Made by a program: the position numbers and the translations under genes. Positions 1,146 to 5,940 of a DNA stretch of 5,940 nt are shown here, piece after piece (the first letter of the stretch is position 1; the number at the start of each line of letters is the position of its first letter). Location: the IMG/VR virus record IMGVR_UViG_2778261394_000001, positions 1-5,940 of that record, one strand, 5' to 3'. A model generated the notes under the pieces. That model saw only the letters and a list, made by a program, of their open reading frames with translations. It did no database searches and had not been told where the DNA came from. The DNA comes from a virus. Taxonomy: Duplodnaviria; Heunggongvirae; Uroviricota; Caudoviricetes.

Positions 1146-1705
1146 TTATTCTTTGTCGCTGATGAGGGAAATTTTTTATAGAGCGTGGACAGACCAATAT
1201 CAAAAATCAGTGCCACGCGTTGACGTGACTCCCCTGCAGCCAGCAAACGCCCGGCCTGCTCCCACTCACTCGTGGTGAGTTTAGGACGTCTGCCACCAAT
1301 ACGACCTTTGGCTCTGGCCGCTTCCAGCCCGGCCCGAGTCCGCTCGACAATGAGTTCTCGTTCCATTTCAGCCAGGGCACCCATCACATGAAAGAAAAAA
1401 CGCCCCATCGGCGTGCTGGTATCAATAGCATCTGTCAGGCTGCGAAAATTAACGCCGCGTTCGCGCAGTTCCTCAACCAGAATGACCAGATGCCGCATAC
1501 TACGCCCCAGCCTGTCCAGCTTCCAGACCACCAGAGTGTCACCTGCCGATAGTGTCCTGAGCAGTTTTTTAAGCCCCGGTCTGTCGGACTTAGTGCCACT
1601 GATTTTGTCCTCAAAAATCCGCTCACATCCCGCGCAGTTCAGTGCATTACGTTGCAAATCGGTGTTCTGGTCATTTGTTGACACGCGTACATAGCCAATT
1701 AGCAT
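1112..1705 (-). CDS. pin: Serine DNA invertase of the Din family (Pin/Gin/Hin/Cin-like resolvase-invertase)
   Basis: Track ORF 1112..1750 (minus) contains MLIGYVRVSTNDQNTDLQRNAL...LVVWKLDRLGRSM...GRFFFHVMGALAEMERELIVERT...GRIGGRRPKLT...LSTLYKK, with the catalytic-serine motif (YVRVST) and the C-terminal helix-turn-helix of Gin/Hin/Pin. I place the start at ATG 1705..1703 (MLIGY, 197 aa), which matches known invertase N-termini and has an AGGGGA Shine-Dalgarno 6 nt upstream. The in-frame ATG at 1750 would add 15 non-conserved residues. The stop is TAG at 1114..1112. The gene sits immediately next to a crossover site. Confidence 0.9.
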   Translation of the reverse strand: MLIGYVRVSTNDQNTDLQRNALNCAGCERIFEDKISGTKSDRPGLKKLLRTLSAGDTLVVWKLDRLGRSMRHLVILVEELRERGVNFRSLTDAIDTSTPMGRFFFHVMGALAEMERELIVERTRAGLEAARAKGRIGGRRPKLTTSEWEQAGRLLAAGESRQRVALIFDIGLSTLYKKFPSSATKNKLCHPLANRDK

Positions 1706-1732: not shown

Positions 1733-2269
1733 ATGATGCCAGTTAGCCATTATCTCTGCATTTTCATAAACGTTGGTTTGGGAGAAGGTTCGGCATTACC
1801 CGTTGGCGTGCCTGTTCCGTGGCCTTCCGCCACTCCGCCAACAGGCTGGCTGAAATGCAACGGGGCGGCTTTTTCTGCTGAAGAATACCCGGAACTGGCA
1901 AAGGTTTACCCGACAAATAAATTGCCTGATTTACGCGGTGAGTTTATTCGTGGCTGGGATGATGGAAGAGGGATTGATACTAACCGTAGCTTGCTTTCGT
2001 CACAGGGAGATACCATTCGGAATATAACAGGATTTATAAATGAAGTTAAAGGCACCATTGATACAGCAACTTTCAGGTTACAGACTGGTACTGGTGCTTT
2101 TGCCTTAGCATCTCAAGCTACGCGAAATATCTATAATAACCTAGGCACATATGAAACAAAAAATACCCCTTACACAGGATTCAGTTTTGATGCATCCAGG
2201 GTTGTACCAACAGCATCAGAGAATCGCCCTCGAAACATTGCATTTAACTATATCGTGAGAGCAGCATAA
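1733..2269 (+). CDS. Silent alternative tail-fibre C-terminal cassette (Sv'-like receptor-binding module), probably expressed only as a fusion to the H constant region after inversion
   Basis: Track ORF 1733..2269 (178 aa). The frame runs continuously through the crossover site, so codons GLGE at 1775-1786 match GLGE in tail fibre H in the same phase relative to the 2-bp core. Downstream it encodes ...PVPWPSATPPTGWLKCNGAAFSAEEYPELAKVYP...LPDLRGEFIRGWDDGRGID...RPRNIAFNYIVRA, which resembles the phage tail-collar / tail-fibre C-terminal domain family. The ATG at 1733 lies outside the segment and overlaps a hairpin, so it is probably fortuitous and the functional part is about 1775..2266. The stop TAA overlaps the next start (TAATG at 2267-2271). 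Confidence 0.7.
   Translation: MMPVSHYLCIFINVGLGEGSALPVGVPVPWPSATPPTGWLKCNGAAFSAEEYPELAKVYPTNKLPDLRGEFIRGWDDGRGIDTNRSLLSSQGDTIRNITGFINEVKGTIDTATFRLQTGTGAFALASQATRNIYNNLGTYETKNTPYTGFSFDASRVVPTASENRPRNIAFNYIVRAA
1761..1786. repeat. Invertase crossover site (hix/gix/pix-like, 12-2-12 bp) at the invertase-proximal end of the invertible segment
   Basis: Plus strand reads TTTTCATAAACG-TT-GGTTTGGGAGAA. The inner half-site plus core (1773-1787, TTGGTTTGGGAGAAG) is a perfect 15-bp inverted repeat of 3666-3680. The half-site resembles the recalled hix/gix half-site (TTnTCnnAAACC) around a 2-bp core. Confidence 0.75.
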
Positions 2270-2871
2270 TGGATAAAGCAATATTAAATAGTGAGCTTAT
2301 TGCTACAAAGTCGGGGGATATTACCGTTTATAACTATGATAGTGAGACGCAGGAATATATTTCAGCATCAACTGAATATCTTGCCATTGGTGTCGGTATT
2401 CCTGCATATTCCTGTTTAGATGCCCCTGGCACACATAAGGCGGGTTATGCTATCTGTCGTTCTGCAAATTTTAACTCATGGGAATATGTGTCAGACCATC
2501 GCGGTGAAATCGTCTATAACACCGAAACGGGAGACGCCAAAGAAATCACAGCTCCGGGTGATTACCCTGAAAATACAACCACTATCGCCCCGTTAACGCC
2601 ATATGATAAATGGGATGGTGAGAAATGGGTGACGGATACTGAGGCACAGCATAGTGCCGCAGTAGACGCGGCAGAAGCACAGCGCCAGTCACTGATTGAT
2701 GCAGCAATGGCTTCCATTAGTCTGATTCAGCTGAAATTACAGGCCGGACGGAAGTTGACGCAGGCAGAAACAACCAGACTTAACGCTGTGCTGGATTACA
2801 TTGACGCGGTGACGGCAACAGATACCAGCACCGCGCCGGATGTCATCTGGCCTGAACTGCCGGAGGCGTAG
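2269..2871 (+). CDS. Tail fibre assembly chaperone (Tfa/U'-like) cognate to the silent alternative fibre C-terminus
   Basis: Track ORF of 200 aa, translationally coupled to the preceding cassette (TAATG). The C-terminus ...LNAVLDYIDAVTATDTSTAPDVIWPELPEA matches the conserved C-terminal motif of Caudovirales tail-fibre assembly proteins (P2 G and Mu U/U' end in similar ...WPE.P sequences). A GAGAG Shine-Dalgarno precedes the ATG. Confidence 0.8.
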   Translation: MDKAILNSELIATKSGDITVYNYDSETQEYISASTEYLAIGVGIPAYSCLDAPGTHKAGYAICRSANFNSWEYVSDHRGEIVYNTETGDAKEITAPGDYPENTTTIAPLTPYDKWDGEKWVTDTEAQHSAAVDAAEAQRQSLIDAAMASISLIQLKLQAGRKLTQAETTRLNAVLDYIDAVTATDTSTAPDVIWPELPEA

Positions 2872-3286
2872 GCCATTCAATATCTGGCGCACCGGAAGTA
2901 TCGACCAGCACCAGTGCGTCCAGATAATCCAGCCACAAATTATATTGCGCCAGTTCGTCATCTTTCAGACGACCAATAGCGGCTTTACCGGGCCATTGCT
3001 TACTGTTCATGTATTCGTTGGCCTGGTTAATTAGTAGCTGTCTTTCTGATTCAGTAATTTCAATAAGCTCTTCATGCGTGGGTGGAGGAATATCTGCCCA
3101 CGCAGGCATCCCATCATCTCCGGCAATACGGATTTTTCCTTGTGGCGGTTCAGCCATAAACTCACTGATAATATTTTGATTCACCTCCTTTGCATCTGAT
3201 AAATCCCATCCCTCTGATTTATATTTATCAATCATATCCACAGGGAAAAAAGCATTATGCCTTGCGCTATAAACATATTCGTTCAT
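2843..3286 (-). CDS. G: Tail fibre assembly chaperone (P2 gpG / Mu U-like) cognate to the currently expressed fibre C-terminus
   Basis: Track ORF 2843..3295 (minus), whose C-terminus ...YNLWLDYLDALVLVDTSGAPDIEWPTPPAVQAR carries the Tfa C-terminal motif. The track start is a GTG at 3295 with no spacer after an AGG. I prefer ATG 3286..3284 (MNEYVYSARH...), which has a GGGTGA Shine-Dalgarno 5 nt upstream. The gene lies directly downstream of the tail-fibre stop (TAA 3309..3307). Confidence 0.8.
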   Translation of the reverse strand: MNEYVYSARHNAFFPVDMIDKYKSEGWDLSDAKEVNQNIISEFMAEPPQGKIRIAGDDGMPAWADIPPPTHEELIEITESERQLLINQANEYMNSKQWPGKAAIGRLKDDELAQYNLWLDYLDALVLVDTSGAPDIEWPTPPAVQAR

Positions 3287-3306
3287 ATAAATCACCCTGA
3301 ATAAAA

Positions 3307-4506
3307 TTACTCACCAACAGCCCACCAACTGTAATTCATCGATACTGTGGAACTGGTTGATGCAGTTCTGTAAGCGGAATTAAAACCGGTTAATGTTGGG
3401 CCTTCTGCAGTCATCATGAACCCTCGCCCAGCACCTAAAGGCGCACCACCATCACCAGAATGAGTAAGCATGGCGCAGTCCGCTTTTTTGGGGAAAGGGA
3501 TGCTGAATGTAATTCTCATTGTTTGCGTCGATAATGTCGGCGTAACCGCACCACGACCATATTGCAGGATTTTCCCGTTGGGTAATTTCATCCATCCATC
3601 ACCACTGGCAAAAGAGGCCATGTCCGGTATCTGATTTTCCCCTGTCCCCACATCCCGTTTTGCCGCTTCTCCCAAACCAAGGTATGCGAGAAGACCGGCA
3701 ACATCCTTTCCACTCAAATGAGTCAGCGTCTCATCCAGTGGCTGCTTACCTGACAGCGCATTGTTAATGGTGGTACTGAATTTCGGGTCATTGTTAATGG
3801 CTGCGGCAATTTCTTTCAGTGTGTCCAGCGTGGCTGGCGCACCGTTAATCAGAGCGGTAATAGCGGCCTGAACAAACTCAGTGGTCGCAATCCGCGTGGT
3901 GTTATTCCCTGCGGCAGGCGTCGGCGCTTTTGGTTCTCCGGTAAATGTCGGATTATGTTTCTGTGCATACTGGGTATGAGGATCCTGTGCGGCAATGTGG
4001 TTTCTCATCTGGTCATCCACATACAGCCTTAATTCCAGGACTTCATCATCCACGTATTTACGGGTCGCCAGTACCACCGACGGGTCGATTTTCAGCGTAA
4101 TAGCTTCGGTATTCGTGACAACCAGAATCATGCGGATAGTCTGGGTACGACCACTGCCTTCCTGCAACTGCGGTTTGTACGTTTCCGGGCAGTTCGCCAC
4201 CGCAATGAGTACGCCTTCATCATCATAAAGCCCAATCTCACGGATCCAGAATCCGCCCTCGTTCTCAGGGATGATTTGCTCCGCAATAATCTGGCTCTGG
4301 TTGTTCGGGTCAACACTCAGAAGATTCAGCGGCGCGATGCGTTTCTGGTTAATCAGTTTTGTCTGTGCCGGGTCTGGTGTCGGCAAGACACCATTCGCAT
4401 CACCAACGGCCATTTGCGTCAGATTCAGCTTACTGCCGAGCATCGTCGCGTTAGCCAGCCGTGCTGCGCCCTGATTAGTCAGAATGGCGTAGTATTTCAC
4501 TGTCAT
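3307..4506 (-). CDS. H: Tail fibre protein (P2 gpH family): constant N-terminal region (about 4506..3681) fused to the currently in-phase variable C-terminal module (3666..3307)
   Basis: 399-aa ORF. The N-terminal 200-270 residues (...MAVGDANGVLPTPDPAQTKLI...IIAEQIIPENEGGFWIREIGLYDDEGVLIAVANCPETYKPQLQEGSGRTQTIRM...YVDD...NNTTRIATTEFVQAAITALINGAPATLDTLKEIAAAINNDPKFSTTINNALSGKQP) follow the conserved pattern I recall for P2 H and Mu S tail-fibre N-termini. The crossover site falls at codons 276-280 (L-GLGE). The start ATG 4506..4504 overlaps the stop of the upstream gene (ATGA). Confidence 0.88.
   Translation of the reverse strand: MTVKYYAILTNQGAARLANATMLGSKLNLTQMAVGDANGVLPTPDPAQTKLINQKRIAPLNLLSVDPNNQSQIIAEQIIPENEGGFWIREIGLYDDEGVLIAVANCPETYKPQLQEGSGRTQTIRMILVVTNTEAITLKIDPSVVLATRKYVDDEVLELRLYVDDQMRNHIAAQDPHTQYAQKHNPTFTGEPKAPTPAAGNNTTRIATTEFVQAAITALINGAPATLDTLKEIAAAINNDPKFSTTINNALSGKQPLDETLTHLSGKDVAGLLAYLGLGEAAKRDVGTGENQIPDMASFASGDGWMKLPNGKILQYGRGAVTPTLSTQTMRITFSIPFPKKADCAMLTHSGDGGAPLGAGRGFMMTAEGPTLTGFNSAYRTASTSSTVSMNYSWWAVGE
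3667..3692. repeat. Invertase crossover site (hix/gix/pix-like, 12-2-12 bp) inside the tail-fibre gene, at the constant/variable junction
   Basis: Plus strand reads TTCTCCCAAACC-AA-GGTATGCGAGAA. The two half-sites are dyad-symmetric at 10 of 12 positions. 3666-3680 is the exact reverse complement of 1773-1787. Confidence 0.75.
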
Positions 4507-5114
4507 GCGTTTACTCTCAGGTTATCAATTAAATGAATGGCCGAGGCCGGGAAATAATCCCCTCCGACAATAATGGCCTCCGGGGTGTAGGGATAAACCG
4601 TCAGGGCGTCGCCGTGATAGCATCCCGCACCGGCAAAAATGTTGCCGGTTGTACTTAAACTGATAGCCAGTCCCGTCAGATGGCGGCTTGCAGGTTTTGC
4701 ATCAGCAACGAGACGCTCCAGCTCCTGATACATTTCCTCGGTAATACCCTGCTCAAGCACGCCAACAACGATGCGGAACGTCCCTGGCTCCTCGTTGAGC
4801 TGCCACCACTCCCTCACCTCAATCAGATAGCCGAGCGGCTCCACCACACGGCGAATCGCACCAATAGTGCCCTTATGGCAGTGAATGAAATACGCATCGC
4901 GGATAACAGCGCGTTTGGTCGCTTCCGGCCATTTATCATCCCACCTGTCGACCGAAAATGACCACGCCAGCCACGGCAGCAGATTTGCCGGGCAGGTGTC
5001 CGGGTTCCACAGCTCACGAATACTGACCGGTGTTTTTTCAATTTCCGCACAGGCTTTTGCGGCGGCAACTTCAAGCGGTGATGAGCCGGTCGGCAGCAGT
5101 CGCGAATCACTCAT
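4503..5114 (-). CDS. I: Baseplate assembly protein (P2 gpI family, phage tail protein I)
   Basis: 203-aa ORF beginning MSDSRLLPTGSSPLEVAAAKACAEIEKTPVSIRELWNPDTCPANLLPWLAW..., which I recognise as P2 gpI-like. The start ATG 5114..5112 overlaps the end of the upstream J gene by 8 bp (ATGAGTGA), and the stop overlaps the H start. This is the expected position between J and H. Confidence 0.85.
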   Translation of the reverse strand: MSDSRLLPTGSSPLEVAAAKACAEIEKTPVSIRELWNPDTCPANLLPWLAWSFSVDRWDDKWPEATKRAVIRDAYFIHCHKGTIGAIRRVVEPLGYLIEVREWWQLNEEPGTFRIVVGVLEQGITEEMYQELERLVADAKPASRHLTGLAISLSTTGNIFAGAGCYHGDALTVYPYTPEAIIVGGDYFPASAIHLIDNLRVNA

Positions 5115-5940
5115 CCGAGCCTCCGGTCACGACGCGGTATTCGGTACAGAAAGACGCCTGCGTACTGTTGAGCACGATGTCGGCCAGTGGTGCGGCCAGC
5201 TCGACACGCTGCACGCCTTCCACATGCAAAGCGGCATAAATGGCAGACAGACGGATGTCGCGCCCCAGCCGGTGCTGTGCCGTGATATACGCTTCCAGTT
5301 TTTTCACGGCGGCAGCGCGAATGGGTTCGCTTTCGGGACCAGGGTAAAGATACAGCGTGGCGTTTATCTGGTATTCAACGATGGCGGCAGACTGCACGGT
5401 CACACGGTCAGCCACCGGCCTGACGTCCTCACCATTAAGGGCGTTACGCACCACAGCCAGCAGGTCTTCGGATGCGACACCGTTATTTTCACGTGACAGC
5501 ACGGAGATGGTGACGCAGGCAGGAGACGGACTGGTAACAGAGATATCCGCGACACGCCCGTCAGCACTGCGACCATGATACTGATAGGCACCCACCGACC
5601 CGGCGACGCTTAAACCTTCAAAGGCCTGCTGAATACGCAGACGATAATCGGTGTCAGATTCCATCACGGCCGGTGTCGGCGGGAGGGTCGAATCATCTGC
5701 CGGAGTGATAATCAGGCGCGTGGTGTTGTAATTGGCACCAATCACATCAAGGTCATTACCGGCTGCACAGGCCAGCATCACCGCCCGTGCGGCCTCATTC
5801 ACACGCTGACGCCAGATAAGCTCACGATAAGCATTTTCCTCCAGCAGTTTGACGAGAGGTTCGGATTCCAGCGTCAGGGTACGGGCGACCGCCTCCTGCT
5901 GGTCTTCCGGGTAAAGGGAAATCAGTGTCGCCTTGCGTTC
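5107..5940 (-). CDS. J: Baseplate wedge protein (P2 gpJ family, baseplate J-like); 5'-partial, N-terminus lies beyond the window end
   Basis: The track lists 5107..5802 from a GTG, but I translated the same frame up to position 5940 and found no stop (...ERKATLISLYPEDQQEAVARTLTLESEPLVKLLEENAYRELIWRQRVNEAARAVMLACAAGNDLDVIGANYNTTRL...). The gene therefore enters the window already open. The sequence and its position upstream of I fit P2 gpJ. The stop is TGA at 5109..5107. Confidence 0.85.
   Translation of the reverse strand, partial: ERKATLISLYPEDQQEAVARTLTLESEPLVKLLEENAYRELIWRQRVNEAARAVMLACAAGNDLDVIGANYNTTRLIITPADDSTLPPTPAVMESDTDYRLRIQQAFEGLSVAGSVGAYQYHGRSADGRVADISVTSPSPACVTISVLSRENNGVASEDLLAVVRNALNGEDVRPVADRVTVQSAAIVEYQINATLYLYPGPESEPIRAAAVKKLEAYITAQHRLGRDIRLSAIYAALHVEGVQRVELAAPLADIVLNSTQASFCTEYRVVTGGSDE

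Follow-up and report, generated by a model that had tools for sequence, protein, structure and literature searches.

The DNA considered here is a stretch of 5940 base pairs (bp), hereafter the window, that makes up the complete contig NMEZ01000062.1 of assembly GCA_002542845.1; reverse-complemented, it is identical to locus L021. It represents the tail-fibre end of a P2-like (Peduovirus) prophage bearing a DNA inversion module of the Pin/P-segment type. The module is best read as a two-site inversion switch that exchanges the C-termini of the tail fibre protein H, a reading to which a probability of about 0.93 is attached, and nothing was found in the evidence that contradicts it. Within the Din inversion systems the element falls in the Pin/pix branch, and in the prophage it lies between the fibre genes and the pF/sheath operon. 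An earlier note on this DNA had observed inverted crossover sites placed such that inversion would give an in-frame swap of the fibre C-terminus; the observation is confirmed, and the interpretation given to it there is supported.

The observation started from a 15-bp sequence, TTGGTTTGGGAGAAG, reported at positions 1773-1787 with its exact reverse complement at 3666-3680. Both copies are present as described, and each occurs once in the window. The 15-bp repeat is the common part of two 26-bp crossover sites (Table 1), and the top-ranked inverted repeat returned by a repeat finder for the window, 27 nucleotides (nt) in length and 81% complementary, spans 1761-1787 and 3666-3692. Both sites fit the two imperfect 12-bp half-sites of the Din pattern TTC---AAAC- -A -GTTT---GAA, and are in inverted orientation. 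The 2-bp core is identical in the two sites and is non-palindromic, reading TT at 1773-1774 and AA at 3679-3680 (TT on the other strand), so that the sites have polarity and religation would be possible only after inversion. A perfect inverted repeat of at least 15 bp was found in 23 of 2000 mononucleotide shuffles (~1%) when the arms were required to be at least 50 nt apart, the count made without this requirement (38/300) being inflated by short self-overlapping palindromes. A chance origin of the 15-bp repeat is unlikely.

A site weight matrix built from 13 published Din-family sites (Hin/Gin/Cin/Pin/Min/PinB) gives scores of 32.9 bits for the left site and 30.8 bits for the right, with a maximum of 15.7 over 100 shuffles; the matrix includes pixR, which is the same sequence as the left site, so that the left score, unlike the right one, is partly circular. 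Elsewhere in the window the best score is 4.3, and no extra crossover sites, such as would be present in a shufflon or a Min-like multi-site system of the kind described for one P2-like prophage of enteropathogenic Escherichia coli (EPEC), were found in the window. In a published table of Din sites (PMC3241671), pixR reads TTCTCCCAAACC AA CGTTTATGAAAA and pixL reads TTCTCCCAAACC AA GGTTTTCGAGAG. The alignment with published hix, gix, cix and pix sequences that the earlier note had called for shows pixR to be the exact reverse complement of 1761-1786 (26/26), and pixL to match 3667-3692 at 23 of 26 positions, with all three differences in the outer half-site. Likewise, in the record for e14 of E. 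coli K-12 the site beside pinE is identical to the left site of the window (26/26), and the second e14 site has its core and inner half-site in common with the window. The outer half-sites of the window, TTTTCATAAACG and TTCTCGCATACC, agree in 7 of their 12 positions, as had been counted before. Such divergence had been called usual for hix and gix sites, which holds for hix, and for cix and pix, but not for gix, where both sites are identical. The right site, on the H side of the segment, is also present in prophages L002, L006, L007, L013 and L016, and an exact-match scan of species-representative genomes with the 27-bp left site returned three loci, one in Shigella flexneri and two in E. 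coli.

The position of the repeat relative to the reading frames is also as claimed. On the minus strand, L276 of H is encoded by CTT (3681-3679) and is followed by G277, L278, G279 and E280, and the plus-strand frame that opens at 1733 has V (GTT, 1772-1774) ahead of G, L, G and E, with the TT core at codon positions 2-3 in both frames. Because the core occupies positions 2-3 of codon 276, the constant 276 residues of H would be fused in frame to either end. Reverse-complementing 1775-3678 in silico, the check proposed for this arrangement, creates a single continuous open reading frame (ORF) on the minus strand, running from 4506 to a stop at 3184 without a frameshift or a stop at the junction. 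H residues 1-276 are thereby joined in frame to either C-terminus, giving a protein of 399 amino acids (aa) in the native form and of 440 aa in the inverted form. The first 280 residues of the two proteins are identical, and after inversion the 200-aa assembly protein sits directly downstream of the 440-aa H. Any exchange point within the 15 identical bases leads to the same inverted product.

The exact product of this inversion exists in nature. A 156-kb contig of assembly GCA_958328835.1 (L013) was found among the contigs whose invertase protein is identical to that of the window. It matches the in-silico inverted window at 5940/5940 positions, with no mismatch and no gap, whereas against the native window it aligns in three pieces whose ends overlap at 1773-1787 and 3666-3683. 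The genes called on this contig include a predicted 440-aa H with a Collar domain. The same prophage sequence is therefore present in both orientations in two independent assemblies. Both junction types also occur among E. coli genomes, for 300-bp probes of the left junction are contiguous in 966 of 5426 complete genomes in the native form and in 279 of 5426 in the inverted form, with a best identity of 99% for each. Thus, natural recombinant junctions sit at the places where they had been predicted. Collinearity with the inverted form extends across both junctions in E. coli EH10-18-47 (L006) and in locus L016. In the case of Salmonella phage MET_P1_103_31 (L003), TTTTCATAAACG, TT and GGTTTGGGAGAA are followed by a gp53-type cassette, and a Collar-type cassette comes next to the H-side site, so that this phage, too, is collinear with the inverted form and carries both predicted recombinant junctions. 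Sequence comparison thus supports the view that the segment between the sites inverts.

The left site adjoins the gene for a small serine recombinase. Pfam places a Resolvase domain (2.1e-52) and an HTH_7 domain (9.2e-13) in the protein, and the closest solved structure is that of Gin (3uj3, E = 3.8e-95, residues 1-182). Its identity is 87% with PinE, 77% with Cin and 76% with Gin, all three taken from database records, and ~66% with a Hin sequence. Phage pro483 has the same 594-nt gene, annotated there as a DNA invertase. In an alignment of the invertase with PinE, Cin, Gin and Hin the catalytic Ser9 is invariant. Residues that are uniquely conserved in Fis/enhancer-dependent invertases correspond to K47, K/R48, K/R51, Q151, R154 and L155 of Hin (McLean et al., PMC3798978). 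At the aligned positions the invertase of the window has K46, K47, R50, Q150, R153 and L154. With Pfam, the PDB and direct alignment pointing the same way, the family assignments are judged to be unambiguous. The longest ORF for the invertase starts at an ATG at 1750 (212 aa), but this start was rejected in favour of the ATG at 1705 (197 aa, MLIGYVRVST...), since the alignment with PinE, Gin and Cin, an AGGGGA Shine-Dalgarno sequence before 1705, and database annotations agree on the latter.

A putative recombinational enhancer, an element that in Din systems comprises two Fis sites in cis, can be placed within the 5' end of the invertase gene. The P1 record has an 'enhancer of Cin-mediated C-segment inversion' annotated at nt 19-90 of cin, and 1616-1687 is the positional homologue of that stretch, matching it at 56/72 positions as compared to 57/72 for pinE and 55/72 for gin. 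The Hin enhancer lies ~100 bp from hixL (PMC3798978), which is comparable to the ~86-157 bp that separate the putative enhancer from the left core here.

Several points limit the reading of the module as a working inversion switch of the Din type. The comparison of orientations fixes the exchange point only to the 15 identical bases and not to the 2-bp core, exchange at the central 2 bp being what the known chemistry of the family would predict. That 1616-1687 would act as an enhancer is suggested by homology only, and synonymous-site conservation in codons 7-30 relative to the rest of the gene gives a mixed picture, being lower in the comparison with cin and higher or equal in those with gin and pro483. 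A consensus scan for a sigma-70-like invertase promoter on the minus strand from 1706 to ~1800 found none above its threshold. Finally, the contig shows one orientation only, with no direct sign of ongoing switching in the source strain. The last two points would also fit a module whose sites and invertase are intact but in which inversion has ceased in the source strain, for instance because the invertase is unexpressed, the orientations seen in databases then being past events elsewhere. That such modules decay is suggested by the degenerate H-side sites (TTCTCCCAATTG + AA...) of some related prophages. This is the only rival explanation with some weight, and it is nonetheless improbable. 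The invertase ORF is intact and keeps all catalytic and Fis-contact residues, and each site fully matches a functional pix site. The family's invertases are known to have weak promoters and very low expression, which also counts against inversion having ceased. Moreover, a prophage stretch that is 100% identical to that of the window is present in the other orientation, and such identity of the inverted copy (L013) implies a very recent inversion.

The placement of the exchange within 15 identical bases is formally compatible with any mechanism that uses homology, and inversion might then be ascribed to RecA-dependent general recombination at short repeats, with the neighbouring recombinase uninvolved. 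This is very unlikely, as efficient RecA recombination usually needs ~20-30 bp, and an identity of 15 bp falls below that. The repeats are instead full 26-bp matches to the sites of the very invertase family that is encoded beside them, one of them being identical to pixR, and the module is always accompanied by the invertase gene. No sign of rearrangement is seen at I2 and I3, two further inverted repeats of comparable length in the window. There is still less room for the view that no recombination is involved, and that the repeat is a mere by-product of homologous fibre genes on opposite strands that share a GLGE motif. It is true that the repeat encodes G-L-G-E in both genes, and that inverted repeats of 15 bp arise by chance in ~1% of shuffles. 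However, the nucleotide identity covers all synonymous positions and ends abruptly on both sides, and the Din consensus is matched even in the non-coding outer half-site at 1761-1772. This explanation is effectively refuted by the existence in nature of the exact inversion product (L013).

Table 1. Genes, crossover sites and other features of the inversion module and its surroundings; positions are those of the window
Feature	Coordinates	Strand	Remarks
Baseplate gene J	5940 (cut by contig end) to 5107	minus	
Tail protein gene I	4503-5114	minus	
Tail fibre gene H	3307-4506	minus	399 aa; Phage_tail_fib N-terminal domain and Gp53-like C-terminal domain
H constant N-terminal part, codons 1-276	3679-4506	minus	Outside invertible segment; Phage_tail_fib residues 1-150, E = 1e-62
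Right crossover site, inside gene H	3667-3692		Plus strand TTCTCCCAAACC + AA + GGTATGCGAGAA; core 3679-3680; inner half-site 3667-3678
Invertible segment	1775-3678		1904 bp between cores; two convergent cassettes, each with a fibre C-terminus and its own chaperone
H variable C-terminus, now expressed, codons 277-399	3307-3678	minus	Pfam Gp53-like_C residues 307-398, E = 1e-11
Tail-fibre assembly chaperone of expressed end	2843-3286	minus	147 aa; ATG at 3286; Pfam Caudo_TAP 2e-30
Silent assembly chaperone of alternative end	2269-2871	plus	200 aa; Caudo_TAP 2e-32; ~90% nt identity to e14 tfaE
Silent alternative H C-terminus	1775-2269	plus	164 aa; Pfam Collar 3e-15; ~82% nt identity to e14 stfE
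Left crossover site, adjoins invertase	1761-1786		TTTTCATAAACG + TT + GGTTTGGGAGAA; core 1773-1774; inner half-site 1775-1786
Putative recombinational (Fis) enhancer	1616-1687		Invertase gene nt 19-90; ~90-160 bp from left core
DNA invertase, Pin-type small serine recombinase	1112-1705	minus	197 aa, 594 nt; Resolvase + HTH_7
Tail sheath gene	from 1052 to contig end	minus	

The mechanism by which the switch would operate can be outlined by analogy with Hin and Gin. Dimers of the invertase would bind the two 26-bp sites at 1761-1786 and 3667-3692, and host Fis, bound to the enhancer in the 5' end of the invertase gene, would on supercoiled DNA bring the complex together as an invertasome (PMC3798978). 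All four strands would then be cut at the central TT/AA, and after rotation of one pair of subunits by 180 degrees religation would leave 1775-3678 inverted, with the short loop between enhancer and site likely restricting the reaction to a single exchange (PMC3798978). Both cleavage at the core, with the 2-nt stagger and the 5'-phosphoserine intermediate of the family, and dependence on Fis and the enhancer are thus predicted from what is known of the family. Transcription of the late operon J-I-H would enter from outside the segment, such that the present orientation would give the 399-aa H with its gp53-like end, and the other orientation the 440-aa H with a StfE-like end bearing the Collar domain, each followed by its own chaperone. 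A population of lysogens would in this way release phage with two receptor specificities, a form of host-range bet-hedging. That the two fibre ends confer different host ranges is suggested by the precedent of Mu and P1. The two C-termini fall into different Pfam families (Gp53-like_C and Collar), which is consistent with different receptors but is no proof of them.

The organization of the genes is in keeping with such an arrangement. The constant part of H is read from the upstream late operon (J, I and H) and is unaltered by the in-silico inversion, and it is to codon 276 of this part that the silent Collar end is joined upon inversion. Inside the segment each alternative C-terminus is paired with a Caudo_TAP chaperone of its own, in both cassettes, and the chaperone gene at 2843-3286 is annotated, in pro483 as in other records, as a tail fiber assembly gene of 444 nt. 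The two convergent chaperone genes share a 29-bp overlap of their 3' ends (2843-2871), as do tfaP and tfaE in e14 (L005, 3518-3546). An 18-nt inverted repeat (I7; 2790-2807 and 2916-2933) flanks this overlap; it is not a separate DNA element, but exists because both chaperones keep a C-terminal LDY(I/L)DA motif.

Relative to PinE, the invertase has a 13-residue C-terminal extension, which is accounted for by the 3' end of the gene running into the homologue of the P2 pF region. The last ~10 codons (LCHPLANRDK) and the stop codon, at 1112-1150 on the minus strand, lie inside the homologue of the promoter and activator-binding region of P2 pF. Homology to the P2 backbone begins at a TGTG, ~94 nt upstream of the ATG of the sheath gene (FI). 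The start of this homology also marks the junction at which the module was inserted, in place of the Z/fun region of P2. The closest public relatives of the window are E. coli O157 prophages and phage pro483, with ~96% identity across 96% of its length. At its two ends, the window stops inside the sheath gene and inside the baseplate gene J, and the identical sequence, with the segment inverted, lies within the 156-kb contig described above. The contig probably breaks at these points because the source genome has a second P2-like prophage, so that the assembly collapsed at conserved tail genes.

The region between the invertase start and the left site has further features that bear on expression. 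A weak terminator-like hairpin with a T-run is found at 1725-1744 on the minus strand, between the left site and the start of the invertase, and overlaps the ribosome-binding region. This hairpin, a consensus match only, could reduce the extent to which transcription of the late fibre operon continues into the invertase gene. On the plus strand, a sigma-70-like match (TTGACA-16-TAGCAT, 1678-1705, 10/12) lies inside the 5' end of the invertase gene and inside the putative enhancer, and points to the parked cassette. A plus-strand frame with ATG codons at 1733 and 1736 starts beyond the segment and runs through the left site without a change of frame, with the consequence that the parked C-terminus always forms an ORF, of 178 aa now and of 137 aa in the inverted form. 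In database records this ORF appears as a 'tail collar fiber protein', a 'phage tail protein' or a 'gp53-like domain-containing protein', and its K-12 counterpart, stfE, is marked as a pseudogene. These features might be read to mean that the 'silent' cassette is not fully silent, and that the lysogen makes a free receptor-binding fragment of the unused version of the fibre. Such expression is very unlikely; were it to occur, the free fibre fragment might serve in exclusion or as a decoy. Every Pin-type locus examined has the ATGATGCC stretch conserved, but this conservation is more simply explained by the fact that the region must also hold the promoter and the ribosome-binding site of the invertase.

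Related prophages provide examples of exchange of modules and of altered sites. Seven loci (L014, L015, L017-L020 and L022) encode an identical invertase protein but carry different cassettes. As far as position 1786, which is exactly where the left site has its inner edge, they share 97-98% identity with the window; similarity is lost there, and on the H side it resumes at 3609 or 3666. Whole invertible segments thus seem to have been swapped between phages, with boundaries at the crossover sites. In L014, L015, L017 (site at 3386) and L004 (sites at 2261 and 3612), the inner half of the H-side site is altered, reading TTCTCCCAATTG + AA + GGTATGC(A/G)AGAA, with AATTG in place of AAACC, and these sites score only 18-20 bits. 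The left site of L004 is changed as well, to TTCTGCTAAACG. The sites in these four loci may have decayed, or may be locked in one orientation. A different change is seen in 'phage P2' of E. coli O157:H43 T22 (L002), where at the left junction (2257-2298) the usual outer half-site, TTTTCATAAACG, is followed by 16 extra bp (GGTC + TTCTCGCATACC). The insertion duplicates the H-side outer half-site together with 4 flanking bases, and as a result of this 16-bp duplication the two sites of L002 are identical across the full 26 bp, forming a perfect long inverted repeat like that of the Mu gix sites.

What the window displays is already known. Published work covers the sequence of the sites, the family of the recombinase, the in-frame design and the inversion of segments in P2-like prophages, and a 'DNA invertase' is already annotated in near-identical prophages. 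The locus holds little new biology, but represents a clean and consistent example of the classical Din-type tail-fibre switch in a P2-like prophage. It does have consequences for annotation. The ORF beside the invertase that is recorded as a 'tail collar fiber protein' or 'phage tail protein' is a parked C-terminus of H and not an independent gene, and for a single prophage the reported length of the fibre protein will be either 399 or 440 aa, according to which orientation the assembly happens to show. For host-range prediction and for the comparison of prophages, the two orientations are best treated as one genotype.

Among known systems, the Pin/P segment of e14 in E. coli K-12 (pinE, stfP-tfaP / tfaE-stfE, pixL and pixR) has the same gene order as the window. 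Common to both are the constant part of the fibre, a variable end with its Tfa protein, a convergent Tfa gene with the alternative end, a site, and an invertase gene that reads away from the segment. The left site is the same in all 26 positions, the inner half-sites and the TT core are identical, the invertases are 87% identical at the protein level, and the DNA is 82-90% identical across the invertase gene, the stfE-like cassette and tfaE. In both, too, the Tfa genes overlap by 29 bp. The two differ in their surroundings, for the element of the window sits in a P2-like myovirus prophage with its J-I-H and sheath context intact, whereas e14 is a defective lambdoid element. They also differ at three positions of the outer half-site on the H side, in the expressed end, which is gp53-like in the window rather than StfP, and in the 13-residue extension by which the invertase of the window reaches into the pF region, unlike PinE. 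Coexisting orientations of e14 have been detected in K-12 and confirmed by PCR (Goldberg et al. 2014, PMC4272514).

The closest parallels among P2-like phages come from EPEC E2348/69, clonal cultures of which contain both orientations of the tail-fibre segments in two P2-like prophages, as shown by sequencing and PCR (PMC4272514). Going by the published description, these loci are elements like that of the window, and the phages that carry them are of the same type. One of the two has three repeats and four variants and is shufflon-like (PMC4272514), in which it differs from the window with its two sites only. Phage pro483 and 'phage P2' of E. coli O157:H43 T22 are P2-like phages in which a DNA invertase is annotated, and pro483 is organized as the window is. 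The Hin system, which controls flagellar phase variation in Salmonella by inversion of the H segment, uses a recombinase of the same family, 26-bp sites of the same architecture with an AA core, and an enhancer placed like the putative one of the window. There, however, inversion flips a promoter and switches genes on and off, and no C-terminus is swapped in frame.

In-frame exchange of fibre C-termini as a host-range switch is known from the G segment of Mu, the C segment of P1, the P segment of e14 and Min of p15B. The Gin/G system of phage Mu and the Cin/C system of P1 are built on Fis/enhancer-dependent serine invertases, which are 76-77% identical to that of the window. As in the window, they have 26-bp sites with a 2-bp core, one of which lies inside a tail-fibre gene (S in Mu and P1), and a constant part that is combined with one of two variable parts and its chaperone (Sc/Sv-U versus Sv'-U'). 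An enhancer is located in the first ~90 nt of the invertase gene, as is the putative one here. Mu differs in its GA core and in a segment of ~3 kb, and P1 in a segment of 4.2 kb and in the direction of cin, which reads toward the segment; the variable parts of both belong to fibre families other than those of the window. At all sites of Mu, P1 and e14 the core forms codon positions 2-3 of a Leu codon (Val in the parked stfE-type cassette), followed by G-L-x-E. The motifs are N-L-G-L-Q-E in Mu, Y/N-L-G-L-R-E in P1, and N-L-G-L-G-E and N-V-G-L-G-E in e14, and those of the window are Y-L-G-L-G-E and N-V-G-L-G-E. Because Mu, P1 and e14 share both the codon phase and the motif, the in-frame design belongs to the family as a whole and is not peculiar to this locus.

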